A DNA stretch of 64,000 bases from a virus: the IMG/VR virus record IMGVR_UViG_3300034283_001962, positions 32,001 to 96,000 of that record; one strand, written 5' to 3'. How positions within the stretch are numbered: the first letter of the stretch is position 1; each line of letters opens with the position of its first letter. The position numbers and the translations under genes are program-made. This document shows, one piece after another, positions 4,315 to 10,414 of this stretch. The notes beneath the pieces are model-generated. The model had not been told where the DNA came from. It was given only the letters and a program-made list of their open reading frames with translations, and made no database searches.

Positions 4315-4621
4315 TATACATTTGTAAGCTTTTAATAAAATTTAATATATTTTCAGAAGGGTTTTCAATTTTTTGAATCTCTAGTAACTTCTTTTCTTTT
4401 TTACGAATATCTATCTTTAGCTTTCGAACAGAAAATCTAAATACTCCAAACCCAGATAATTCTACAGTGGTACAAGAGTTAAATGCTTTAGTTGCATCTT
4501 TAAATATAAAGTTTATAACTTTATCTATTTCTATAGGTTTAATATCTAACTTAGAAGATAATCTATTAATTAATACTTCCTGAAGTTTATCTTTAGATAT
4601 AAGGTTATTTTCTAGATTCAT
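4271..4621 (-). CDS. HU/IHF-like DNA-binding protein
   Basis: VELSGFGVF motif and helical N-terminus typical of HU/IHF. Confidence 0.7.
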   Translation of the reverse strand: MNLENNLISKDKLQEVLINRLSSKLDIKPIEIDKVINFIFKDATKAFNSCTTVELSGFGVFRFSVRKLKIDIRKKEKKLLEIQKIENPSENILNFIKSLQMYIENAKTKINELEKN

Positions 4622-4625
4622 TTAA

Positions 4626-4976
4626 TTATAATTTTTTAATTAAACTTATATCTAAAGATATATCTCTATTTATAAAATCTAGGTTGATTTGGTGAACTAT
4701 TCTATATTTACCTTGAAATTTTTCTAATAAACCTATTTCTTTTAATTCAGATATCATATTATTGACAGAGTTAACTGAACTGTTATATTTAACAGAGAAG
4801 TCATTTTTGGCTGACAAAGAAGATATCGTACCTCTAATAGCCGTAAAAGCTAATAATTGAAGTTGTTTATTTGTTACTTTAATATTATTAACTAAACAGA
4901 TTATAGAATAATACTTTAGAGCTATATCTAAAGCTGATTCTTCTTGTTTTTTGATTTTTTGTACGATTAAAGTCAT
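4626..4976 (-). CDS. Winged-helix-like hypothetical protein
   Basis: SVNSVNNMISELKEIGLL...YRI pattern. Confidence 0.45.
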   Translation of the reverse strand: MTLIVQKIKKQEESALDIALKYYSIICLVNNIKVTNKQLQLLAFTAIRGTISSLSAKNDFSVKYNSSVNSVNNMISELKEIGLLEKFQGKYRIVHQINLDFINRDISLDISLIKKL

Positions 4977-5061
4977 CGTTCCTAATGTAATTAATTATGC
5001 AAAGATAGTGAAATTATAATATAAAGATATAGTTATATAATAACTTAATGCTATATTAAAC

Positions 5062-5090
5062 AAAAAAATCCTCCCTTTTGAGGAGGATTT
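5062..5090 (-). terminator. Intrinsic terminator closing tRNA operon 1
   Basis: AAATCCTCC/GGAGGATTT hairpin followed by a T-run on the minus strand. Confidence 0.75.
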
Positions 5091-5092
5091 AG

Positions 5093-5166
5093 AACACCTA
5101 GAAAGACTCGAACTTTCACTCTTTTGATCCGTAGTCAAAAGCTTTATCCAATTAAGCTATAGGTGC
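5093..5166 (-). tRNA. tRNA-Arg(ACG)
   Basis: Cloverleaf; anticodon arm TTTGA-CTACGGA-TCAAA. Confidence 0.9.
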
Positions 5167-5169
5167 AGA

Positions 5170-5243
5170 TGGGTGGAATTGGGATTCGAACCCAATCAAG
5201 TGATTCACAGTCACCCGTCAGAATCCAGTCTGAACGATTCCAC
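5170..5243 (-). tRNA. tRNA-His(GTG)
   Basis: Anticodon arm GGTGA-CTGTGAA-TCACT; G-1 and CCA encoded. Confidence 0.88.
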
Positions 5244-5245
5244 AG

Positions 5246-5317
5246 TTCCCTTATCTAGGCTCGAACTAGAACTACCAGAGTCAAAATCTGATGTGTTAAC
5301 CATTACACTATAAGGGA
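5246..5317 (-). tRNA. tRNA-Gln(TTG)
   Basis: Anticodon arm TCAGA-TTTTGAC-TCTGG. Confidence 0.9.
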
Positions 5318-5334
5318 ATAGCATACCATAAAAA

Positions 5335-5408
5335 TGGCACAGGTAGAGAGATTCGAACTCCCAACAGCAGTTTTGGAGACTGACATGATACCATTTCACC
5401 ATACCTGT
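5335..5408 (-). tRNA. tRNA-Trp(CCA)
   Basis: Anticodon loop CTCCAAA; CCA end encoded. Confidence 0.9.
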
Positions 5409-5413
5409 TTCTG

Positions 5414-5485
5414 TGGTAAGAAAGGGTAACGATCCCTTCTCCAAGGTTTTTCAGACCTTTGCTAATCCATCTCAGCTATCTTACC
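5414..5485 (-). tRNA. tRNA-Phe(GAA)
   Basis: Anticodon arm AAGGT-CTGAAAA-ACCTT; atypical T-loop ATCGTTA. Confidence 0.85.
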
Positions 5486-5494
5486 GTAATTTAA

Positions 5495-5568
5495 AGCATG
5501 TTGTACAAATTCTTCGTTTTCACATTGCAGGTGAATTAAGCCTATGTGTGCTGGCTGCGTAACATGTT
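5495..5568 (-). ncRNA. Putative small structured RNA with a Cys-type anticodon hairpin
   Basis: Terminal stem ACATGTT/AACATG, GCAGCCA motif, internal TTCAC-CTGCAAT-GTGAA hairpin; resembles units of the 26973-27398 array. Confidence 0.45.
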
Positions 5569-5598
5569 AAAAGCACTAACCAGATTCGAACTGGTGTG

Positions 5599-5668
5599 AA
5601 TCCAGTATGAGAATCGAACTCATTTCAATAGTTTTGCAGACTATTTGGCTTCCATAACCTCACTGGAT
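5599..5668 (-). tRNA. tRNA-Cys(GCA)
   Basis: Anticodon arm ATAGT-CTGCAAA-ACTAT. Confidence 0.85.
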
Positions 5669-5669
5669 A

Positions 5670-5772
5670 ATTTATACCAATTAAAATCTTTTGCCGTTTT
5701 TCTTCTATGACAATTTGCGCATCTTACATCACATTTTTCAATTTCATTTTTTACCTGATTTAAATCGGTCAT
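5670..5772 (-). pseudogene. HNH endonuclease C-terminal remnant
   Basis: Translates to MTDLNQVKNEIEKCDVRCANCHRRKTAKDFNWYK. Confidence 0.7.
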
Positions 5773-5783
5773 AGTGCTATTTG

Positions 5784-5855
5784 ATCCTCGTAAGGTACTC
5801 GAAACCTTTTCCCCAGTTTACAAGACTGGTGCATCACCATATATGCTTACAAGGA
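5784..5855 (-). tRNA. tRNA-Thr(TGT)
   Basis: Anticodon arm CCAGT-CTTGTAA-ACTGG. Confidence 0.88.
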
Positions 5856-5860
5856 ATATG

Positions 5861-5935
5861 TCGAGTAAACAGGAGTCGAACCTGCATGATGTCTTCACCC
5901 CAAATGAAGAGGCTTACCAGTTAGCCCATTACTCG
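5861..5935 (-). tRNA. tRNA-Pro(TGG)
   Basis: Anticodon arm CTTCA-TTTGGGG-TGAAG. Confidence 0.88.
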
Positions 5936-5947
5936 ATGCTATAAAAT

Positions 5948-5976
5948 AAAAAACCCCCGATTTTATGTCGGAGGGT
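5948..5976 (-). terminator. Attenuator terminator upstream of tRNA operon 1
   Basis: ACCCTCCGA-cataaaa-TCGGGGGT-TTTTT; its 5' arm can alternatively pair with GAGGGTGAA (6040-6048). Confidence 0.85.
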
Positions 5977-6012
5977 GAATAGACTTTTTTTAGTCCGTTA
6001 TGCACGAATAGT

Positions 6013-6105
6013 CTAATTTTTTATGACACATGTACATAGTTCACCCTCTCCACAGATACACTGCGGGGTAAAAGTAAACCACGTATGACGTACTATCTTT
6101 TTCAT
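6013..6105 (-). CDS. Leader peptide 1, MKKIVRHTWFTFTPQCICGEGELCTCVIKN
   Basis: 30-codon ORF between a promoter and a terminator; the sensor block matches the downstream tRNAs. Confidence 0.85.
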   Translation of the reverse strand: MKKIVRHTWFTFTPQCICGEGELCTCVIKN

Positions 6106-6109
6106 AACA

Positions 6110-6141
6110 CAAACATATGAAGAAATTCTGAAACTTCCAAA
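6110..6141 (-). promoter_or_regulatory. Bacteroidota primary-sigma promoter (TTTG-N20-TATGTTTG)
   Basis: Matches the TTTG-N19-21-TAnnTTTG consensus. Confidence 0.8.
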
Positions 6142-6154
6142 TTTATTTTTTTTG

Positions 6155-6225
6155 TTGGATAGGAGAGAATCGAACTCTCTTGCCTACGTTTTACAGACGT
6201 TGCTGGTTGCCCTGACCTCTACCCA
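6155..6225 (-). tRNA. tRNA-Tyr(GTA), short variable arm
   Basis: Anticodon arm ACGT-CTGTAAA-ACGT. Confidence 0.8.
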
Positions 6226-6230
6226 ATATG

Positions 6231-6319
6231 CGGAGAAAGTGAGACTCGAACTCACACTAGAGTTTTATCCCTAGAACAGTTTAGCAAACTGCTGCAGTAC
6301 CATTATGACTTATTCCTCC
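6231..6319 (-). tRNA. tRNA-Ser(GCT)
   Basis: Anticodon arm GCAGT-TTGCTAA-ACTGT; long variable arm. Confidence 0.9.
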
Positions 6320-6324
6320 AAATG

Positions 6325-6408
6325 CGGTGGTAACAGGAATCGAACCTGTATGGCTGTTACACCTTCAACGTTTTCAAGACGCATAAGCCCTCTCTATTGC
6401 GTACCACC
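6325..6408 (-). tRNA. tRNA-Ser(TGA)
   Basis: Anticodon loop CTTGAAA; long variable arm. Confidence 0.85.
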
Positions 6409-6413
6409 AATTG

Positions 6414-6487
6414 TAGCTCTGATGAGATTCGAACTCACACAAAACAGATTTTAAGTCTGCCGCCGTTACCAATTAGACCACAGAGCT
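6414..6487 (-). tRNA. tRNA-Leu(TAA), short variable arm
   Basis: Anticodon arm GCAGA-CTTAAAA-TCTGT. Confidence 0.87.
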
Positions 6488-6490
6488 ATG

Positions 6491-6566
6491 TACCCCTAGC
6501 GAGATTCGAACTCGCAAAACTCCTGATTCTAAGTCAGGCGACTTTACCTAATTTGCCCATAGAGGT
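6491..6566 (-). tRNA. tRNA-Leu(TAG), short variable arm
   Basis: Anticodon arm CCTGA-CTTAGAA-TCAGG. Confidence 0.87.
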
Positions 6567-6574
6567 ATATAAAT

Positions 6575-6604
6575 AAAAAAACCTAGCTCTTTTAGGAACT
6601 AGGC
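6575..6604 (-). terminator. Attenuator terminator upstream of tRNA operon 2
   Basis: GCCTAGTTC-ctaaaa-GAGCTAGGT-TTTTTT; 5' arm alternatively pairs with GGGAACAGG (6645-6653). Confidence 0.85.
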
Positions 6605-6629
6605 TTTAAGAAGTAGGTTAGAAAAAACC

Positions 6630-6707
6630 TTACTGTATATAATCCCTGTTCCCTTGATGAATCAAGAGCGATAAACTGGAATAATATGACAGTAATAGAT
6701 TTCTCAT
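6630..6707 (-). CDS. Leader peptide 2, MRNLLLSYYSSLSLLIHQGNRDYIQ
   Basis: 25-codon ORF with 12 consecutive Leu/Ser/Tyr codons ahead of the Leu/Ser/Tyr tRNAs. Confidence 0.85.
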   Translation of the reverse strand: MRNLLLSYYSSLSLLIHQGNRDYIQ

Positions 6708-6711
6708 TGGA

Positions 6712-7092
6712 TTATCCTTCTACAGAAGTTTCAGGTTCAGTTGGTTCTTCAACTGGATCTACTGGGGGTTCTACTACATCAGTAATAGTACCTTTAAGGT
6801 CAGCAATAGCTAGATCTAATTTATCAGCTACAGCTTGAATTTCTTGTGAAGTTACTGAACTAGCTAATTGAGCTTGAAGATCAGCTACTACAGCTTCAAG
6901 ATCAGTAATTACTTTTGCAATTTGTGCTTGTTCAGCATCAAGAGACAATTGAAGTTCATCTACTTTTGCTGAAAGTTCTTGAATAGTTGCCATTGTTTGT
7001 TTATTTTGTGATTGTATTAAAAATATTTTTTTTACTAAATATACAAGAAATCCTATTGTTAGACTTTGTAAGATTATTATAAATAATAGCAT
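6712..7092 (-). CDS. Coiled-coil protein with a possible N-terminal membrane anchor and acidic Pro-rich tail
   Basis: 126 aa; hydrophobic N-terminus; heptad pattern. Confidence 0.65.
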   Translation of the reverse strand: MLLFIIILQSLTIGFLVYLVKKIFLIQSQNKQTMATIQELSAKVDELQLSLDAEQAQIAKVITDLEAVVADLQAQLASSVTSQEIQAVADKLDLAIADLKGTITDVVEPPVDPVEEPTEPETSVEG

Positions 7093-7110
7093 AGTATATC
7101 TTTTCTACCA

Positions 7111-7142
7111 CAAATATAAACTTATAATTTGAAACTACCAAA
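7111..7142 (-). promoter_or_regulatory. Bacteroidota promoter (TTTG-N20-TATATTTG)
   Basis: Consensus match; drives the 126-aa ORF, leader 2 and tRNA operon 2. Confidence 0.8.
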
Positions 7143-7155
7143 TTAATTTAATATG

Positions 7156-7228
7156 TACTCCTTATTAGACTTGAACTAATAACTTCTTCCATGTAAGGGA
7201 AGCACTCTACCAATTGAGTTAAAGGAGC
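7156..7228 (-). tRNA. tRNA-Val(TAC)
   Basis: Anticodon arm CTTCC-CTTACAT-GGAAG. Confidence 0.9.
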
Positions 7229-7233
7229 AAAAG

Positions 7234-7307
7234 TGGAAGTCATGGGTATCGAACCCATCTCAGTTTGCTTGCAAAGCAATCTCGCCAGCCAAGGAACATG
7301 CACCCCC
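7234..7307 (-). tRNA. tRNA-Ala(TGC)
   Basis: Anticodon loop TTTGCAA; G-rich acceptor with a G.U pair; atypical D-arm. Confidence 0.8.
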
Positions 7308-7313
7308 AAAAAA

Positions 7314-7460
7314 TCAGGACTTTACGCCCTGATTAGTTAACTTAAAATAATCTGCTGCAGAAATCCGGTCTCGTACAAAAAGAGAAATAGGATTTGTACG
7401 AGCTGCAGCTTTTCTTTTCTTTTTGCCAAACTTACGTTGGCTTTTTACTTTCTGTGCCAT
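7314..7460 (-). CDS. Small basic protein MAQKVKSQRKFGKKKRKAAARTNPISLFVRDRISAADYFKLTNQGVKS
   Basis: 48-codon ORF inside the tRNA cluster, ending in a hairpin/T-run. Confidence 0.5.
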   Translation of the reverse strand: MAQKVKSQRKFGKKKRKAAARTNPISLFVRDRISAADYFKLTNQGVKS

Positions 7461-7536
7461 GTGAATACTTGGCTACTGTTTTGTCAGTAGTTACCGTATT
7501 CGGCTCATAGAATTCTTCATATTCATATTATTTAAG

Positions 7537-7609
7537 TTGGCATACTCAGACTCGAACTGAGGACTTCTGCAGTATCAGTGCAGTACTCTAACCACTGAGT
7601 TATACGCCA
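7537..7609 (-). tRNA. tRNA-Ile(GAT)
   Basis: Anticodon arm CTGCA-CTGATAC-TGCAG. Confidence 0.9.
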
Positions 7610-7614
7610 GTATG

Positions 7615-7689
7615 TTGACTCTATCGGATTCGAACCGATGACCTTAACGTTATGAGCGTTCTGCTACTAACCAACTGAGCTAAGAGTCA
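7615..7689 (-). tRNA. tRNA(CAT), probably Ile2 (lysidine) or elongator Met
   Basis: Anticodon loop CTCATAA. Confidence 0.85.
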
Positions 7690-7694
7690 AGAAG

Positions 7695-7767
7695 CCGAGA
7701 GTGGGAGGTTCGAACTCCGACCTTCACATCGACAGTGTGACATGCTCGCCATTACACTACACCCTCG
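7695..7767 (-). tRNA. tRNA-Asp(GTC)
   Basis: Anticodon arm TCACA-CTGTCGA-TGTGA. Confidence 0.88.
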
Positions 7768-7780
7768 TTTAAATTTATTG

Positions 7781-7853
7781 TACTCTCAACGGGGATTGAA
7801 CCCGTATTGACAGATTGAAAGTCTGTTATCCTGACCAATTAGATGATGAGAGC
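7781..7853 (-). tRNA. tRNA-Glu(TTC)
   Basis: Anticodon arm ACAGA-CTTTCAA-TCTGT. Confidence 0.9.
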
Positions 7854-7900
7854 AAAGCTCTTCACCCTCTTTTAGTGAATTTCTCATAATACTATTTTTG

Positions 7901-7974
7901 TGCAGTAAACAAGACTCGAACTTGCAACTTCCACCTTGGCAAGGTGGCACTCTAACCAATTGAGCTATTACTGC
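7901..7974 (-). tRNA. tRNA-Gly(GCC)
   Basis: Anticodon arm CCACC-TTGCCAA-GGTGG. Confidence 0.9.
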
Positions 7975-7975
7975 G

Positions 7976-8049
7976 TGGAGCAGGTAACCGGGATCGAACC
8001 GACATCAGAAGATTGGAAATCTCCTGCACTACCATTGTGCTATACCTGC
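7976..8049 (-). tRNA. tRNA-Gly(TCC)
   Basis: Anticodon arm GGAGA-TTTCCAA-TCTTC; CCA encoded. Confidence 0.9.
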
Positions 8050-8165
8050 ATTTCAGTTTTTCATGAGCCTTGTAGAACTGTAACTACCGCCGGACCTACT
8101 TTCTAGAATTTCCTCCGAACCCCTTTGCACCAGATTTTATATCTGGTGTGGTGCTACTGTTATCT

Positions 8166-8693
8166 TTAACCTACTTTCCTCAGTAATTCACTAAGTCTAA
8201 GTTCTGTGTAATCTTCTAATGGGATGACACTTAAAGCTTTCTTTCTGATAATGTGATCAGCTGCTTTTGTAGCTATCATTTGTCCACTTTTAAAGATCGG
8301 GACTTGGTTGATTCCTTTAGTCCATCCTTTAAAATCTTGTACCAGTTTTGATGACAGGGTTTTTTTGACATCTGCGAAATCAAACTCAAGCCCTTCAATA
8401 GAGATTGGTATCTCTCTACTGATAAGTTCTGATGTTTCGATTGTCTTAACCCCTTCTTCATATAATCTCAGGTACTCTGTTTTGTACCTTTTTTTCTCAT
8501 CATAATTGAATATATAATGAGCACCTCTTAAACCGTAACGGAAAACTACTACTGTAACAAACTTGGTAAGCTTGTAGTCCTGGGAGTCCGTACCTATCCT
8601 AATAGTCAAGTTGTTGTGTTCATTGACTTGTTCTAGAATATGATCTACCAGATTTACTATAGTACCATCCTCTTTTCTGAAGTACTTTTCCAT
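8166..8693 (-). CDS. RNase H-like YkuK/DUF458-family protein (likely start MEKYF at 8693)
   Basis: IGTDSQ...RLYEE...ATKAADH motifs; the annotated upstream start overlaps tRNA-Met. Confidence 0.75.
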   Translation of the reverse strand: MEKYFRKEDGTIVNLVDHILEQVNEHNNLTIRIGTDSQDYKLTKFVTVVVFRYGLRGAHYIFNYDEKKRYKTEYLRLYEEGVKTIETSELISREIPISIEGLEFDFADVKKTLSSKLVQDFKGWTKGINQVPIFKSGQMIATKAADHIIRKKALSVIPLEDYTELRLSELLRKVG

Positions 8694-8706
8694 AACGGTT
8701 TTGTTG

Positions 8707-8780
8707 ATGCAGGGGTGGGCCGACGATCCCACGTATTTCTAGGTTATGAGCCTAGCGAGTCACCTCTACTCTACCCTGCA
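8707..8780 (-). tRNA. tRNA-Met(CAT), possibly initiator-like; atypical T-loop
   Basis: Anticodon arm CTAGG-CTCATAA-CCTAG. Confidence 0.8.
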
Positions 8781-8790
8781 GTTTATAATG

Positions 8791-8862
8791 CGTTCCCACC
8801 AAGACTCGAACTTGGATCAAATGATTAACAGTCACCCGTACTAGCCTTTGTACTATAGGAAC
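8791..8862 (-). tRNA. tRNA-Asn(GTT)
   Basis: Anticodon arm GGTGA-CTGTTAA-TCATT. Confidence 0.9.
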
Positions 8863-8870
8863 ATTTAGTT

Positions 8871-8940
8871 GTAGCCCCAACAAGGATCGAACTCAGCAAT
8901 TGTTTTTTAAATTATAATGTAGTTTTCTATGACAATTACT
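8871..8940 (-). pseudogene. tRNA 3' fragment plus HNH remnant (CSNCHRKLHYN)
   Basis: Isolated GTTCGATCC T-arm half; CxNCH motif on the minus strand. Confidence 0.5.
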
Positions 8941-8941
8941 G

Positions 8942-9013
8942 CAGGGTTACGCAGAATCGAACTGCGACTGAAAGATTAGAAGTCTCTCGTTCTATCCATT
9001 AAACTATAACCCC
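8942..9013 (-). tRNA. tRNA-Arg(TCT)
   Basis: Anticodon arm AGAGA-CTTCTAA-TCTTT. Confidence 0.9.
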
Positions 9014-9071
9014 ATTATATTTAAATTCTCAATAACCTTTGTAAATACAACACATTATTTAATTAAACAAG

Positions 9072-9144
9072 TTCCCCCGCTGAGATTCGAACTCAGCCCC
9101 ATAGGTTAAAAGCCTATTGCCTACTACCAGTTTGCTACAGGGGA
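9072..9144 (-). tRNA. tRNA-Lys(TTT)
   Basis: Anticodon arm ATAGG-CTTTTAA-CCTAT. Confidence 0.9.
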
Positions 9145-9148
9145 TTAT

Positions 9149-9189
9149 AAAAACGAAAAACCCCTGTACCGTTTTACTGGCTCAGGGGT
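9149..9189 (-). terminator. Attenuator terminator upstream of tRNA operon 3
   Basis: ACCCCTG...CAGGGGT-TTTTCGTTTTT; 5' arm GACCCCTGAGCC alternatively pairs with GGCTCAGTGGGTC (9238-9250). Confidence 0.85.
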
Positions 9190-9220
9190 CTTAAAATTGC
9201 TATGTTAAAATTAACTTTTC

Positions 9221-9310
9221 TTAAGTTATAGCAAAAGGACCCACTGAGCCGAACTTCTCATTCGCTCTCCCGATATTATCTACTATAATATATGATGGTC
9301 TTGTTTGCAC
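9221..9310 (-). CDS. Leader peptide 3 (GTG start), MQTRPSYIIVDNIGRANEKFGSVGPFAIT
   Basis: 29-codon ORF; the block IIVDNIGRANEK matches the downstream tRNA set. Confidence 0.82.
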   Translation of the reverse strand: MQTRPSYIIVDNIGRANEKFGSVGPFAIT

Positions 9311-9327
9311 TTTAAAATTTTGAATCA

Positions 9328-9359
9328 CAATATTAAGAAATCTTTTTGATACTACCAAA
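9328..9359 (-). promoter_or_regulatory. Bacteroidota promoter (TTTG-N20-TAATATTG)
   Basis: One mismatch to TAnnTTTG; shares the TTTGGTAGT upstream box with the other promoters. Confidence 0.7.
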
Positions 9360-9363
9360 TTTT

Positions 9364-9828
9364 TTATTTTATTTCTTTTTCTGGTTCTGTTTTAAGCTGA
9401 TTTATATGAAAAATTTGTTCATAAACTGAGTCTGATCGCAATTTTGATAATTTTTTTACATGTTCATTAATCTTTTCTTTAAACATTTTCCTATTCCAAA
9501 TACACCAATATGTTTGAGCATCTCCTTTTATGTATATTTCAGTAAGATCAAATCCAAATTGTTCAATATCTTGAGCTTCTCTACCAGGTGTGTACCATTC
9601 TCCATAACCTATTATTGATTCATGAGGAAAAGAAACCATTCCTACTACTCTATCTATATCTTCGTCATCTTCTTCCTCATCATTAACTAAACCTAATTCT
9701 CTAAGTTTATTCTTACTTGCATCTTTCTTTTTACTAATAGATATTAATACTGGAAACTCAAATAGGTTATCTGTAAAATTAATATCAGGTTCGACAAGTA
9801 TTCCTTGTGGAGTTTTAGTTATGGACAT
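9364..9828 (-). CDS. Hypothetical protein
   Basis: 154-aa ORF. Confidence 0.6.
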   Translation of the reverse strand: MSITKTPQGILVEPDINFTDNLFEFPVLISISKKKDASKNKLRELGLVNDEEEDDEDIDRVVGMVSFPHESIIGYGEWYTPGREAQDIEQFGFDLTEIYIKGDAQTYWCIWNRKMFKEKINEHVKKLSKLRSDSVYEQIFHINQLKTEPEKEIK

Positions 9829-10414
9829 ATAAAACTTTTGGTATTTTAATTATATTTTCTTGTGGAAACTTTATTTTAAACTCCTCTACATATTCTCCAT
9901 CTGCTGCATAACTTGTATTTAATACAATCTGTTGAGCCAGATCATTTCTAGTCGCAAATGCTCCCATATCAATCTGATTAAATCCAGGTGAACATTTAAA
10001 GTAACTGTAATCATAATGACTATGTACCATATCCCAATAGATCATTCCTGGCTGTGTATAACTATTAATTGTTTTTTCAAATTCACTTACAAATGTAGGT
10101 ACATAGTAATTATCATCCCCACTCATAATTACATACTTTCCTCTACATTGTTGTTTACCTAATTCTCTAGGTGTATGTCCCCAATCATTATATCGCTTAT
10201 CCAAGTAAAGTACACGTATCCTTTTATCTATACCTTTTACTATATCAAAAAGCATACCTCTAAACTGATCTGAATAATCCAATCCATCCACTACCACCAG
10301 TGCTTCCCAATTCTCATTTGTCTGACATAATAAAGCACATAAAGTACTGCGTAATTCATTTATCCTATTATAAGTAGGTAACACAAAGCTTACCAATGGC
10401 TGATTATTTATCAT
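9815..10414 (-). CDS. GT2-family glycosyltransferase
   Basis: VSFVLPTYNR, VVVDG and GDDNY motifs. Confidence 0.85.
   Translation of the reverse strand: MINNQPLVSFVLPTYNRINELRSTLCALLCQTNENWEALVVVDGLDYSDQFRGMLFDIVKGIDKRIRVLYLDKRYNDWGHTPRELGKQQCRGKYVIMSGDDNYYVPTFVSEFEKTINSYTQPGMIYWDMVHSHYDYSYFKCSPGFNQIDMGAFATRNDLAQQIVLNTSYAADGEYVEEFKIKFPQENIIKIPKVLYVHN

Follow-up and report, generated by a model that had tools for sequence, protein, structure and literature searches.

What decides when a phage transcribes its own tRNA genes? We know of little that has been established about phage control of such genes, and tRNA genes are, to our knowledge, generally not under leader-peptide attenuation. The question is raised by a 64,000-nucleotide stretch of virus DNA, here called the window, that covers bases 32001-96000 of the 118,407-bp IMG/VR virus record IMGVR_UViG_3300034283_001962, a genome rated complete by CheckV with a G+C content of 32%; the DNA runs that cover the locus (X3, X5, X6 and X7) are all labelled lake water metagenome. 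An array of 23 tRNA genes called by ARAGORN runs along the minus strand of the window from 9144 down to 5092, and between its tRNA-Tyr gene (6154-6225, minus strand) and its tRNA-Pro gene sits a cassette that comprises a promoter-like motif, a short open reading frame (ORF) and an intrinsic terminator. An earlier note on this DNA had read the cassette as an attenuator; its coordinates and letters for the element were all correct on re-inspection, and the reading gained support in silico from the RNA pairings, a ribosome-position switch in modelled folds, the access to the tRNA genes from promoter-like motifs, homologs in other genomes and co-variation among them. We propose, with a probability of roughly 0.8, that the cassette is a ribosome-mediated leader-peptide attenuator of the trp/his/thr type that controls a block of eight phage tRNA genes (block 1). 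Its parts are the following.

6110..6143, minus strand: promoter-like motif, made of AATTTGGAAGTT (TTTG at 6141-6138), a 20-nt spacer and TATGTTTG at 6117-6110
6013..6105, minus strand: leader ORF of 30 codons plus stop TAG, reading MKKIVRHTWFTFTPQCICGEGELCTCVIKN, with its ATG 4 nt past the TATGTTTG box
6058..6090, minus strand: sensor (region 1), RHTWFTFTPQC, codons 6-16, predicted 5' strand of the 1:2 hairpin
6027..6050, minus strand: region 2, predicted 3' strand of the 1:2 hairpin, containing the putative antiterminator arm GAGGGTGAA (6048-6040, codons G-E-G-E)
5971..5979, minus strand: region 3, TTCACCCTC, the candidate partner of the antiterminator arm, with a 4-nt overlap with the terminator 5' arm
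5943..5974, minus strand: intrinsic terminator, hairpin CCTCCGA/TCGGGGG at 5974-5954 and T-run at 5953-5943
5092..5935, minus strand: the block under proposed control (block 1), 8 tRNA genes called by ARAGORN

Block 1 encodes, in order, tRNA-Pro(tgg) (5860-5935), Thr(tgt), Cys(gca), Phe(gaa), Trp(cca), Gln(ttg), His(gtg) and Arg(acg) (5092-5166). The sensor codons (6090-6058) read CGT CAT ACG TGG TTT ACT TTT ACC CCG CAG TGT; all eleven specify amino acids of block 1, and all eight of these amino acids are represented, by one to three codons each. The earlier remark that no residue is extraneous holds for this 11-codon sensor alone; the other 19 codons of the leader include residues outside the set. 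We tested the residue set {R,H,T,W,F,P,Q,C}, which makes up 28.5% of six-frame residues, across the 236,814 codon positions of the whole genome. RHTWFTFTPQC is the second-longest run within this set in all six frames and the sole top run to contain all eight types; the one longer run holds five. Per position, a run of eleven in-set residues with all eight types among them has a probability of about 2e-8, which gives an expectation of 0.005 genome-wide and of about 2e-6 for the interval between promoter-like motif and terminator (roughly 100 sense-strand positions). The match between leader and tRNA genes is thus far beyond chance. Strict wobble rules allow 9 of the 11 sensor codons to be read by the tRNAs of the block. 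Contigs from X3, X5 and X6 cover the attenuator with zero differences. One X7 contig (depth 3.6; possibly an error) has A for G at position 6090 on the plus strand, which turns the first sensor codon from CGT (Arg) to TGT (Cys), still a member of the set.

The sequence between sensor and tRNA-Pro can adopt alternative structures. The terminator hairpin, which was also found independently by a terminator scan, has 7 pairs (5 of them G-C), a loop of 7 and a free energy of -13.6 kcal/mol; its 5' arm CCTCCGA occupies 5974-5968, and its T-run ends 8 nt before tRNA-Pro. Region 2 holds GAGGGUGAA, which could pair instead with region 3, a segment that shares bases with the terminator 5' arm: GAGGGTGAA at 6048-6040 is indeed, as had been noticed before, a perfect 9-nt complement of the segment at 5979-5971. 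The duplex between region 2 and the terminator-arm region amounts to -15.8 kcal/mol. The minimum free energy (MFE) of the 186-nt leader RNA is -49.7 kcal/mol, as against -35.5 +/- 3.7 kcal/mol for shuffled sequences, and 0 of 200 shuffles were as good. In the MFE fold the sensor codons pair with 6050-6028 to give the 1:2 hairpin, and the terminator (3:4) is formed as well. The predicted 1:2, 2:3 and 3:4 pairings correspond to the classical four-region layout.

The position of a ribosome on the leader was modelled by a mask test, in which the ribosomal footprint was forced to be single-stranded codon by codon and the transcript was refolded up to the end of the terminator stem; four footprint sizes agreed to within a one-codon shift. 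In this model an A site on codons 6-14 abolishes the terminator (at F10 in part), and one on Q15 or C16 also disrupts it in part; the terminator is intact when no ribosome is present and when the A site is on codons 2-5, 17-26, 30 or the stop codon. Because the mask folds lose the terminator at the sensor codons, the stretch defined by composition and the predicted structural switch coincide. As a control, 300 dinucleotide-preserving shuffles of the leader were placed ahead of the same terminator: 0/300 gave a switch as good at the sensor position, and 6/300 gave any window of at least nine codons with the terminator intact both when the leader was ribosome-free and at the stop codon.

Is this arrangement peculiar to one genome? 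A megablast search with 4800-7000 against phage records gave no match, and distant blastn returned tRNA-sized matches alone, one of them, a weak one, pointing to Leptolyngbya phage Lbo-JY46. Neither a flanking 154-aa protein nor a 175-aa protein embedded in the array, when used by itself, had relatives in IMG/VR, and a back-translated pattern of the sensor peptide had no match in that collection. The terminase matched 15 loci in IMG/VR and 14 in metagenome contigs, where matches other than the nearest one were 28-38% identical. The window phage is therefore without a close relative in the collections searched. Profile-guided searches with the array-embedded protein found four distinct IMG/VR contigs, L036, L038, L039 and L040 (46-50% identity); a further contig, L037, is identical to L036 over the locus. 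Together with Lbo-JY46 (PP438436.1; L035), whose tRNA order is partly as in the window and whose array-embedded protein is 38% identical to that of the window, this makes six genomes in the comparison, the window included. In all five relatives the block that runs from Pro to Arg(acg) is preceded by a short ORF and a terminator, and the longest in-set runs of these leaders are as follows.

L036: FTHTWQPTTQCPF
L038: HRTHTWFTTCPQCPF
L039: RQWHTPTCTQCPF
L040: FQHTRFWFTQPT
L035: TRQHTQFWFPT

These runs span 11-15 codons and consist exclusively of amino acids of the tRNAs in the genome's own block; across the six genomes, 64 of the 75 sensor codons are readable by strict wobble. The leader peptides share only 2 invariant alignment columns and are 32-54% identical to that of the window. 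Since composition is kept while residue order changes, the pattern looks like that of a leader with a regulatory role, not like that of a folded peptide. The arrays of L036, L038 and L039 begin with the Pro block and those of the window, L035 and L040 end with it, and in either order leader and block remain together. In L036, the terminator and tRNA-Pro are separated by an HNH endonuclease gene that has a promoter motif to itself. The Arg(ACG) gene of L035 was called by Rfam alone (47.9 bits), with the anticodon read by eye.

The codons of these leaders co-vary with the tRNA genes behind them. The tRNA-Cys gene belongs to the Pro block in the window, L036, L038 and L039, and the sensors of all four corresponding leaders (leader 1) contain Cys. 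In L040 and L035 it belongs instead to the Lys block; there, leader 1 is without any Cys codon, and the leaders of the Lys blocks carry Cys inside their in-set runs (IVDNMICGNGRAKE and ...DIVCAEGVNKC...). Cys is absent from the Lys-block sensors of the remaining four genomes, so that the rule holds in 6/6 genomes. Arginine codons follow the isoacceptor: in the window the codon is CGT, with Arg(acg) downstream, and the Lys-block leader uses AGA, with Arg(tct) downstream. Among all genomes, Arg codons are CGT or CGC in 5/5 copies of leader 1 that have Arg and AGA in 6/6 Lys-block leaders; long ORFs use AGA for 61% and CGT for 19% of their Arg codons.

The predicted antiterminator co-varies with the terminator as well. 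A MAFFT alignment of the DNA of the six regions was too gappy for column-wise counts, and co-variation of the pairing was assessed by duplex energies computed per genome. The strongest duplex between leader ORF and terminator arm begins right after the sensor in all six genomes, the bases around a common CCC core vary by genome and match their own partner, and in a matrix of duplex energies the genome's own leader-terminator pair outranks all others in its row in 5 of 6 cases. The mask switch was reproduced in L036 (10/13 sensor codons), L040 (11/12) and L035 (7/11).

How would RNA polymerase reach block 1? The promoter-like motif in its strict form has 6 copies in the genome, as against 0.34 expected from shuffles. 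The minus strand of the array has just two full copies, at 6143-6110 and 7142-7111, and a motif scan found no TAnnTTTG box inside block 1. Since the block lacks a promoter motif of its own, its eight tRNA genes are apparently entered only by read-through of the leader terminator at 5974-5954. No separate terminator lies between the end of tRNA-Tyr (6154) and 5974, and the block 1 terminator would also end transcripts that come from this upstream gene. The copy at 6143-6110 is a putative promoter, judging by its sequence, and the same motif stands ahead of the homologous leaders in L035, L038 and L039. The gap between box and ATG, given as 4 nt in the earlier note and found to be so (TATGTTTG at 6117-6110, ATG at 6105), is the same in L038 and L039, and this spacing makes a leaderless start plausible for these three phages. 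Such a start is not a conserved requirement, since the gap is 7 nt in L035 and the leader is far from the motif in L036 and L040. The TTTG ... TAnnTTTG type of motif is one that we take to be typical of Bacteroidota. The record of L035 gives a cyanobacterial host, yet L035 and the window share this type of motif; the motif is then phage-specific, or else the host assigned to L035 or to the window phage merits re-checking.

The circuit that follows is inferred as regards its start site, leader translation, in vivo termination and read-through, and physiological trigger. Transcription would start at the promoter-like motif, probably at or beside the ATG, and could also arrive from the upstream Leu-Leu-Ser-Ser-Tyr block. 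When the eleven sensor codons are decoded fast, regions 1 and 2 would re-pair, the terminator (3:4) would form and transcription would stop 8 nt before tRNA-Pro. A ribosome stalled by a shortage of charged tRNA for Arg(ACG), His, Thr, Trp, Phe, Pro, Gln or Cys would hold region 1; region 2 (GAGGGUGAA) would then pair with region 3 (UUCACCCUC), no terminator would form, and polymerase would enter the eight tRNA genes. The outcome would be a demand-driven supply, under negative feedback, of exactly those tRNAs whose codons are slow. Because the tRNA product relieves the stall, the circuit would act as a homeostat, and it would also respond to a loss of host tRNAs.

The same array holds two further leader cassettes, and the whole array is closed by a strong terminator.

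6575-6707, minus strand: second cassette, a 25-codon ORF MRNLLLSYYSSLSLLIHQGNRDYIQ and a terminator at 6607-6578, followed by tRNA genes
9149-9359, minus strand: third cassette, a short ORF with the sensor IIVDNIGRANEK, ahead of the Lys-to-Val block
5066..5090, minus strand: strong terminator closing the entire tRNA array, 10 pairs and a T-run

The ORF of the second cassette starts 4 nt past the stop codon of a 126-aa ORF and contains the genome's longest run of {L,S,Y}, LLLSYYSSLSLL (6698-6663); behind its terminator (11-12 pairs) follow tRNA-Leu(tag), Leu(taa), a Ser(TGA)-like element, Ser(gct) and Tyr(gta). In the modelled transcript up to the terminator, the terminator 5' arm is sequestered (8-9 of 12 nt) exactly when the A site is on the twelve L/S/Y codons. 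The full-transcript MFE model gives no switch, with the terminator always winning, and we take the pre-terminator result as context, not as proof. The third cassette has a variant of the promoter-like motif (TAATATTG box), an in-frame GTG at 9310 and a terminator-like hairpin with the arms CCCCTG/CAGGGG (9188-9161); its antiterminator forms by default in the model and is disrupted when the ribosome has moved beyond about codon 16. Apart from Arg, no residue type occurs in more than one of the three sensors. A broader reading, towards which we lean by a little, is that these are modular supply-on-demand cassettes: each block of tRNA genes would travel with a leader that reads decoding speed isoacceptor by isoacceptor (CGY for Arg(ACG), AGA for Arg(UCU)) and that is re-spelled when a tRNA gene changes block, such that replacement tRNAs would be switched on when those of the host are depleted.

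Several observations weigh against an attenuator that reads the supply of individual tRNAs. The mask model also predicts loss of the terminator at three codons outside the set, 27-29 (V, I, K), and leaves this unexplained. L038 has a weak switch (4/15 sensor codons), L039, in which the leader and a small ORF upstream of it are fused, has none at its sensor, and the L036 pair is not the best of its row in the duplex matrix. The codons ACT and ACC in the sensor require extended wobble by the U34 tRNA-Thr, and, over the six genomes, 11 of 75 sensor codons (ACY or CCC) require four-way or extended wobble by U34 tRNAs. With one to three sensor codons for each amino acid, sensitivity to a single limiting tRNA may be low. 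The L036 leader lacks Arg despite the Arg(acg) gene in its block, and the Trp(CCA)-like element of L035 was read by eye, being called by neither ARAGORN nor Rfam. The six cassettes are homologous and hence not six independent draws; the shift of Cys may be one event, L040 and L035 possibly being sister lineages, and even as one event it involves three coordinated changes. Finally, the genome nearest by terminase (59% identity) is syntenic beside the array, yet has no tRNA array there.

Could these observations be accounted for in another way? The hairpin and T-run might be a leaky terminator of the upstream Leu-Leu-Ser-Ser-Tyr operon, with the ORF a chance frame and block 1 served by constitutive read-through. 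That tRNA-Tyr has no terminator of its own before 5974, such that the one ahead of block 1 would end the upstream transcripts, fits this view, but a chance frame leaves unexplained the eleven in-set codons covering all eight types, the same composition rule in five homologous leaders of differing sequence, the movement of the Cys codon with tRNA-Cys, the antiterminator complementarity that tracks each genome's own terminator and the failure of 300 shuffles to give a position-specific switch; we consider it very unlikely. We judge it highly improbable that the product of the ORF is a small peptide, rich in cysteine and functional (C-x-C ... C-x-C, for instance a metal-binding one), whose match to the tRNA genes is incidental. 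Paired Cys codons do occur in the C-terminal half in four genomes (CICGEGELCTC in the window, GICEGLCIC in L036, GGEGCCMC in L038, GCSGGLCI in L039), but the leaders of L040 and L035 have no Cys at all, and the low identity and two invariant columns described above point to conservation of composition and not of order. The C-terminal codons of the TGT/ATG/TGT type complement ACA/CAT/ACG sensor codons in the predicted 1:2 stem, so that RNA pairing would explain the C-terminal Cys codons. The leader ORF matched no Pfam or PHROGs family at E<=1, and a known small-protein family was rejected on these grounds.

The switch might also be real and its signal a more general one, namely translation status, sensed through ribosome slowing or through the presence or absence of leader translation, for instance following host shut-off or under ribosome-targeting stress. 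The model does predict read-through from any stall at codons 6-14, whatever its cause, and a sensor of eight amino acids at one to three codons each is a blunt one; an extra tRNA array in Anabaena is, according to excerpts of two papers, induced by general translational stress (PMC10272220, PMC8421152). We nevertheless hold this account to be unlikely, as a general sensor would need neither codons limited to the amino acids of its own block, nor isoacceptor-matched Arg codons (CGY in leader 1, AGA in the Lys-block leaders), nor a Cys codon that follows tRNA-Cys. Searches with Rfam covered further candidates. No leader family (Thr_leader, His_leader, Phe_leader, Trp_leader and others) matched at 5943-6143 at E<=1, which led us to reject a known Rfam leader; the sole Phe_leader match, of 24.3 bits (gathering threshold 55, E 0.88), falls on the last terminator of the array (5060-5124). 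A T-box riboswitch was rejected since no Rfam T-box matched in 4500-9800 at E<=1.

How does an attenuator of tRNA genes relate to known systems? Leader-peptide attenuators control amino-acid operons, as in trpL, hisL, pheL and leuL and in the multivalent thrL and ilvL of enterobacteria. With the trpL type the phage element shares a short leader ORF with regulatory codons, 1:2, 2:3 and 3:4 hairpins and an intrinsic terminator before the regulated genes, and in both the position of a stalled ribosome decides the fold, for the phage element according to the folding model. An ATG-initiated leader ORF, clustered cognate codons, an intervening terminator and mutually exclusive pairings (the last in silico only) are all found here; the genes behind them, eight tRNA genes, are outside the classical scope of such attenuators, which is biosynthesis, transport or synthetase genes. 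The phage-borne sensor also differs in being eight-valent with one to three codons per amino acid, and its product, tRNA, would directly relieve the stall and thereby give a short feedback loop. T-box riboswitches themselves bind the uncharged tRNA, do without an ORF and regulate synthetase or amino-acid genes. They resemble the phage element in that terminator/antiterminator control reads the charging state of a specific tRNA, whereas the phage element is proposed to do so through a translated ORF and controls tRNA genes.

Leader-peptide attenuators have been treated in a modelling paper (excerpts of PMC1183508), and two further systems come close in single features. In mycobacteria, as described in excerpts of 10.1101/834739, leaderless polycysteine short ORFs stall on Cys codons, which remodels the mRNA and exposes a ribosome-binding site. 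The phage element likewise has a sensory short ORF, plausibly leaderless, in which a stall is predicted to remodel downstream mRNA structure; unlike the mycobacterial ORFs, which control translation in response to one amino acid, it has a terminator, eight amino acids and tRNA targets. In Anabaena sp. PCC 7120, a cryptic trn operon holds an accessory tRNA array that is off until translation is impaired (excerpts of PMC8421152 and PMC10272220), with control exerted at the promoter via direct repeats and the repressor TrcR (PMC8421152); the wording attenuat-, leader and terminator is absent from the main text of PMC8421152. An accessory tRNA array switched on under impaired translation would be common to both systems, but the Anabaena operon, as these excerpts present it, lacks a codon-matched sensor. 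We found no account of leader-peptide attenuation of tRNA genes in the full-text literature, a coverage that leaves out older papers on the T5 tRNA region and supplements; such control is unmentioned in the excerpts of PMC2965389 and PMC4810235, and Lbo-JY46 was not mentioned in the literature searched.

If true, isoacceptor-reading supply on demand would be a regulatory logic not described for any tRNA gene, and phage tRNAs would be made on measured decoding demand, not constitutively. This bears on why phages carry tRNAs at all, be it compensation for codon usage, replacement after loss of host tRNAs or escape from anticodon nucleases. Depletion through phage-induced host shut-off or host anticodon nucleases would then trigger the cassette, which would serve as a built-in detector of tRNA-targeting defence and as a compact natural sensor of individual tRNA supply. 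The hypothesis is directly testable, as the cassette-bearing relative Lbo-JY46 is a deposited isolate with its host named in the record.

Some further features of the arrays were seen in passing. A gap within block 1 (5641-5772, minus strand) holds a 43-aa ORF that resembles an HNH-endonuclease remnant (...CANCHRRK...), and a second one (about 5486-5597, minus strand) a fragment like a tRNA 3' half; intact HNH or homing-endonuclease genes are present in the arrays of relatives and of Tenacibaculum phage Gundel_1. Two tRNA-like elements on the minus strand were not called by ARAGORN: one at 6326-6408 with a Ser(TGA)-like anticodon loop (Rfam tRNA-Sec, 27.1 bits, E 0.03), which has a look-alike in L035 at 4462-4549, and an Ala(TGC)-like one at about 7229-7310 with a poor acceptor stem. 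A highly basic ORF of 48 aa (MAQKVKSQRKFGKKKRK...; 7314-7460, minus strand), which matched no PHROGs family, lies within the array ahead of a terminator-like hairpin and T-run. Upstream of leader 1, a tiny Gly/Cys/Lys/Pro-rich ORF (...GCGCGKPKPK...) is found in L036 (5603-5646), L038 (5880-5951) and L039 (4477-4540), where it forms an in-frame fusion with the leader; no counterpart exists in the window. The array of L038 also contains, at 10056-10128, a tRNA with the anticodon CTA (Rfam tRNA, 67.4 bits), labelled Pyl by ARAGORN, which is possibly an amber suppressor.

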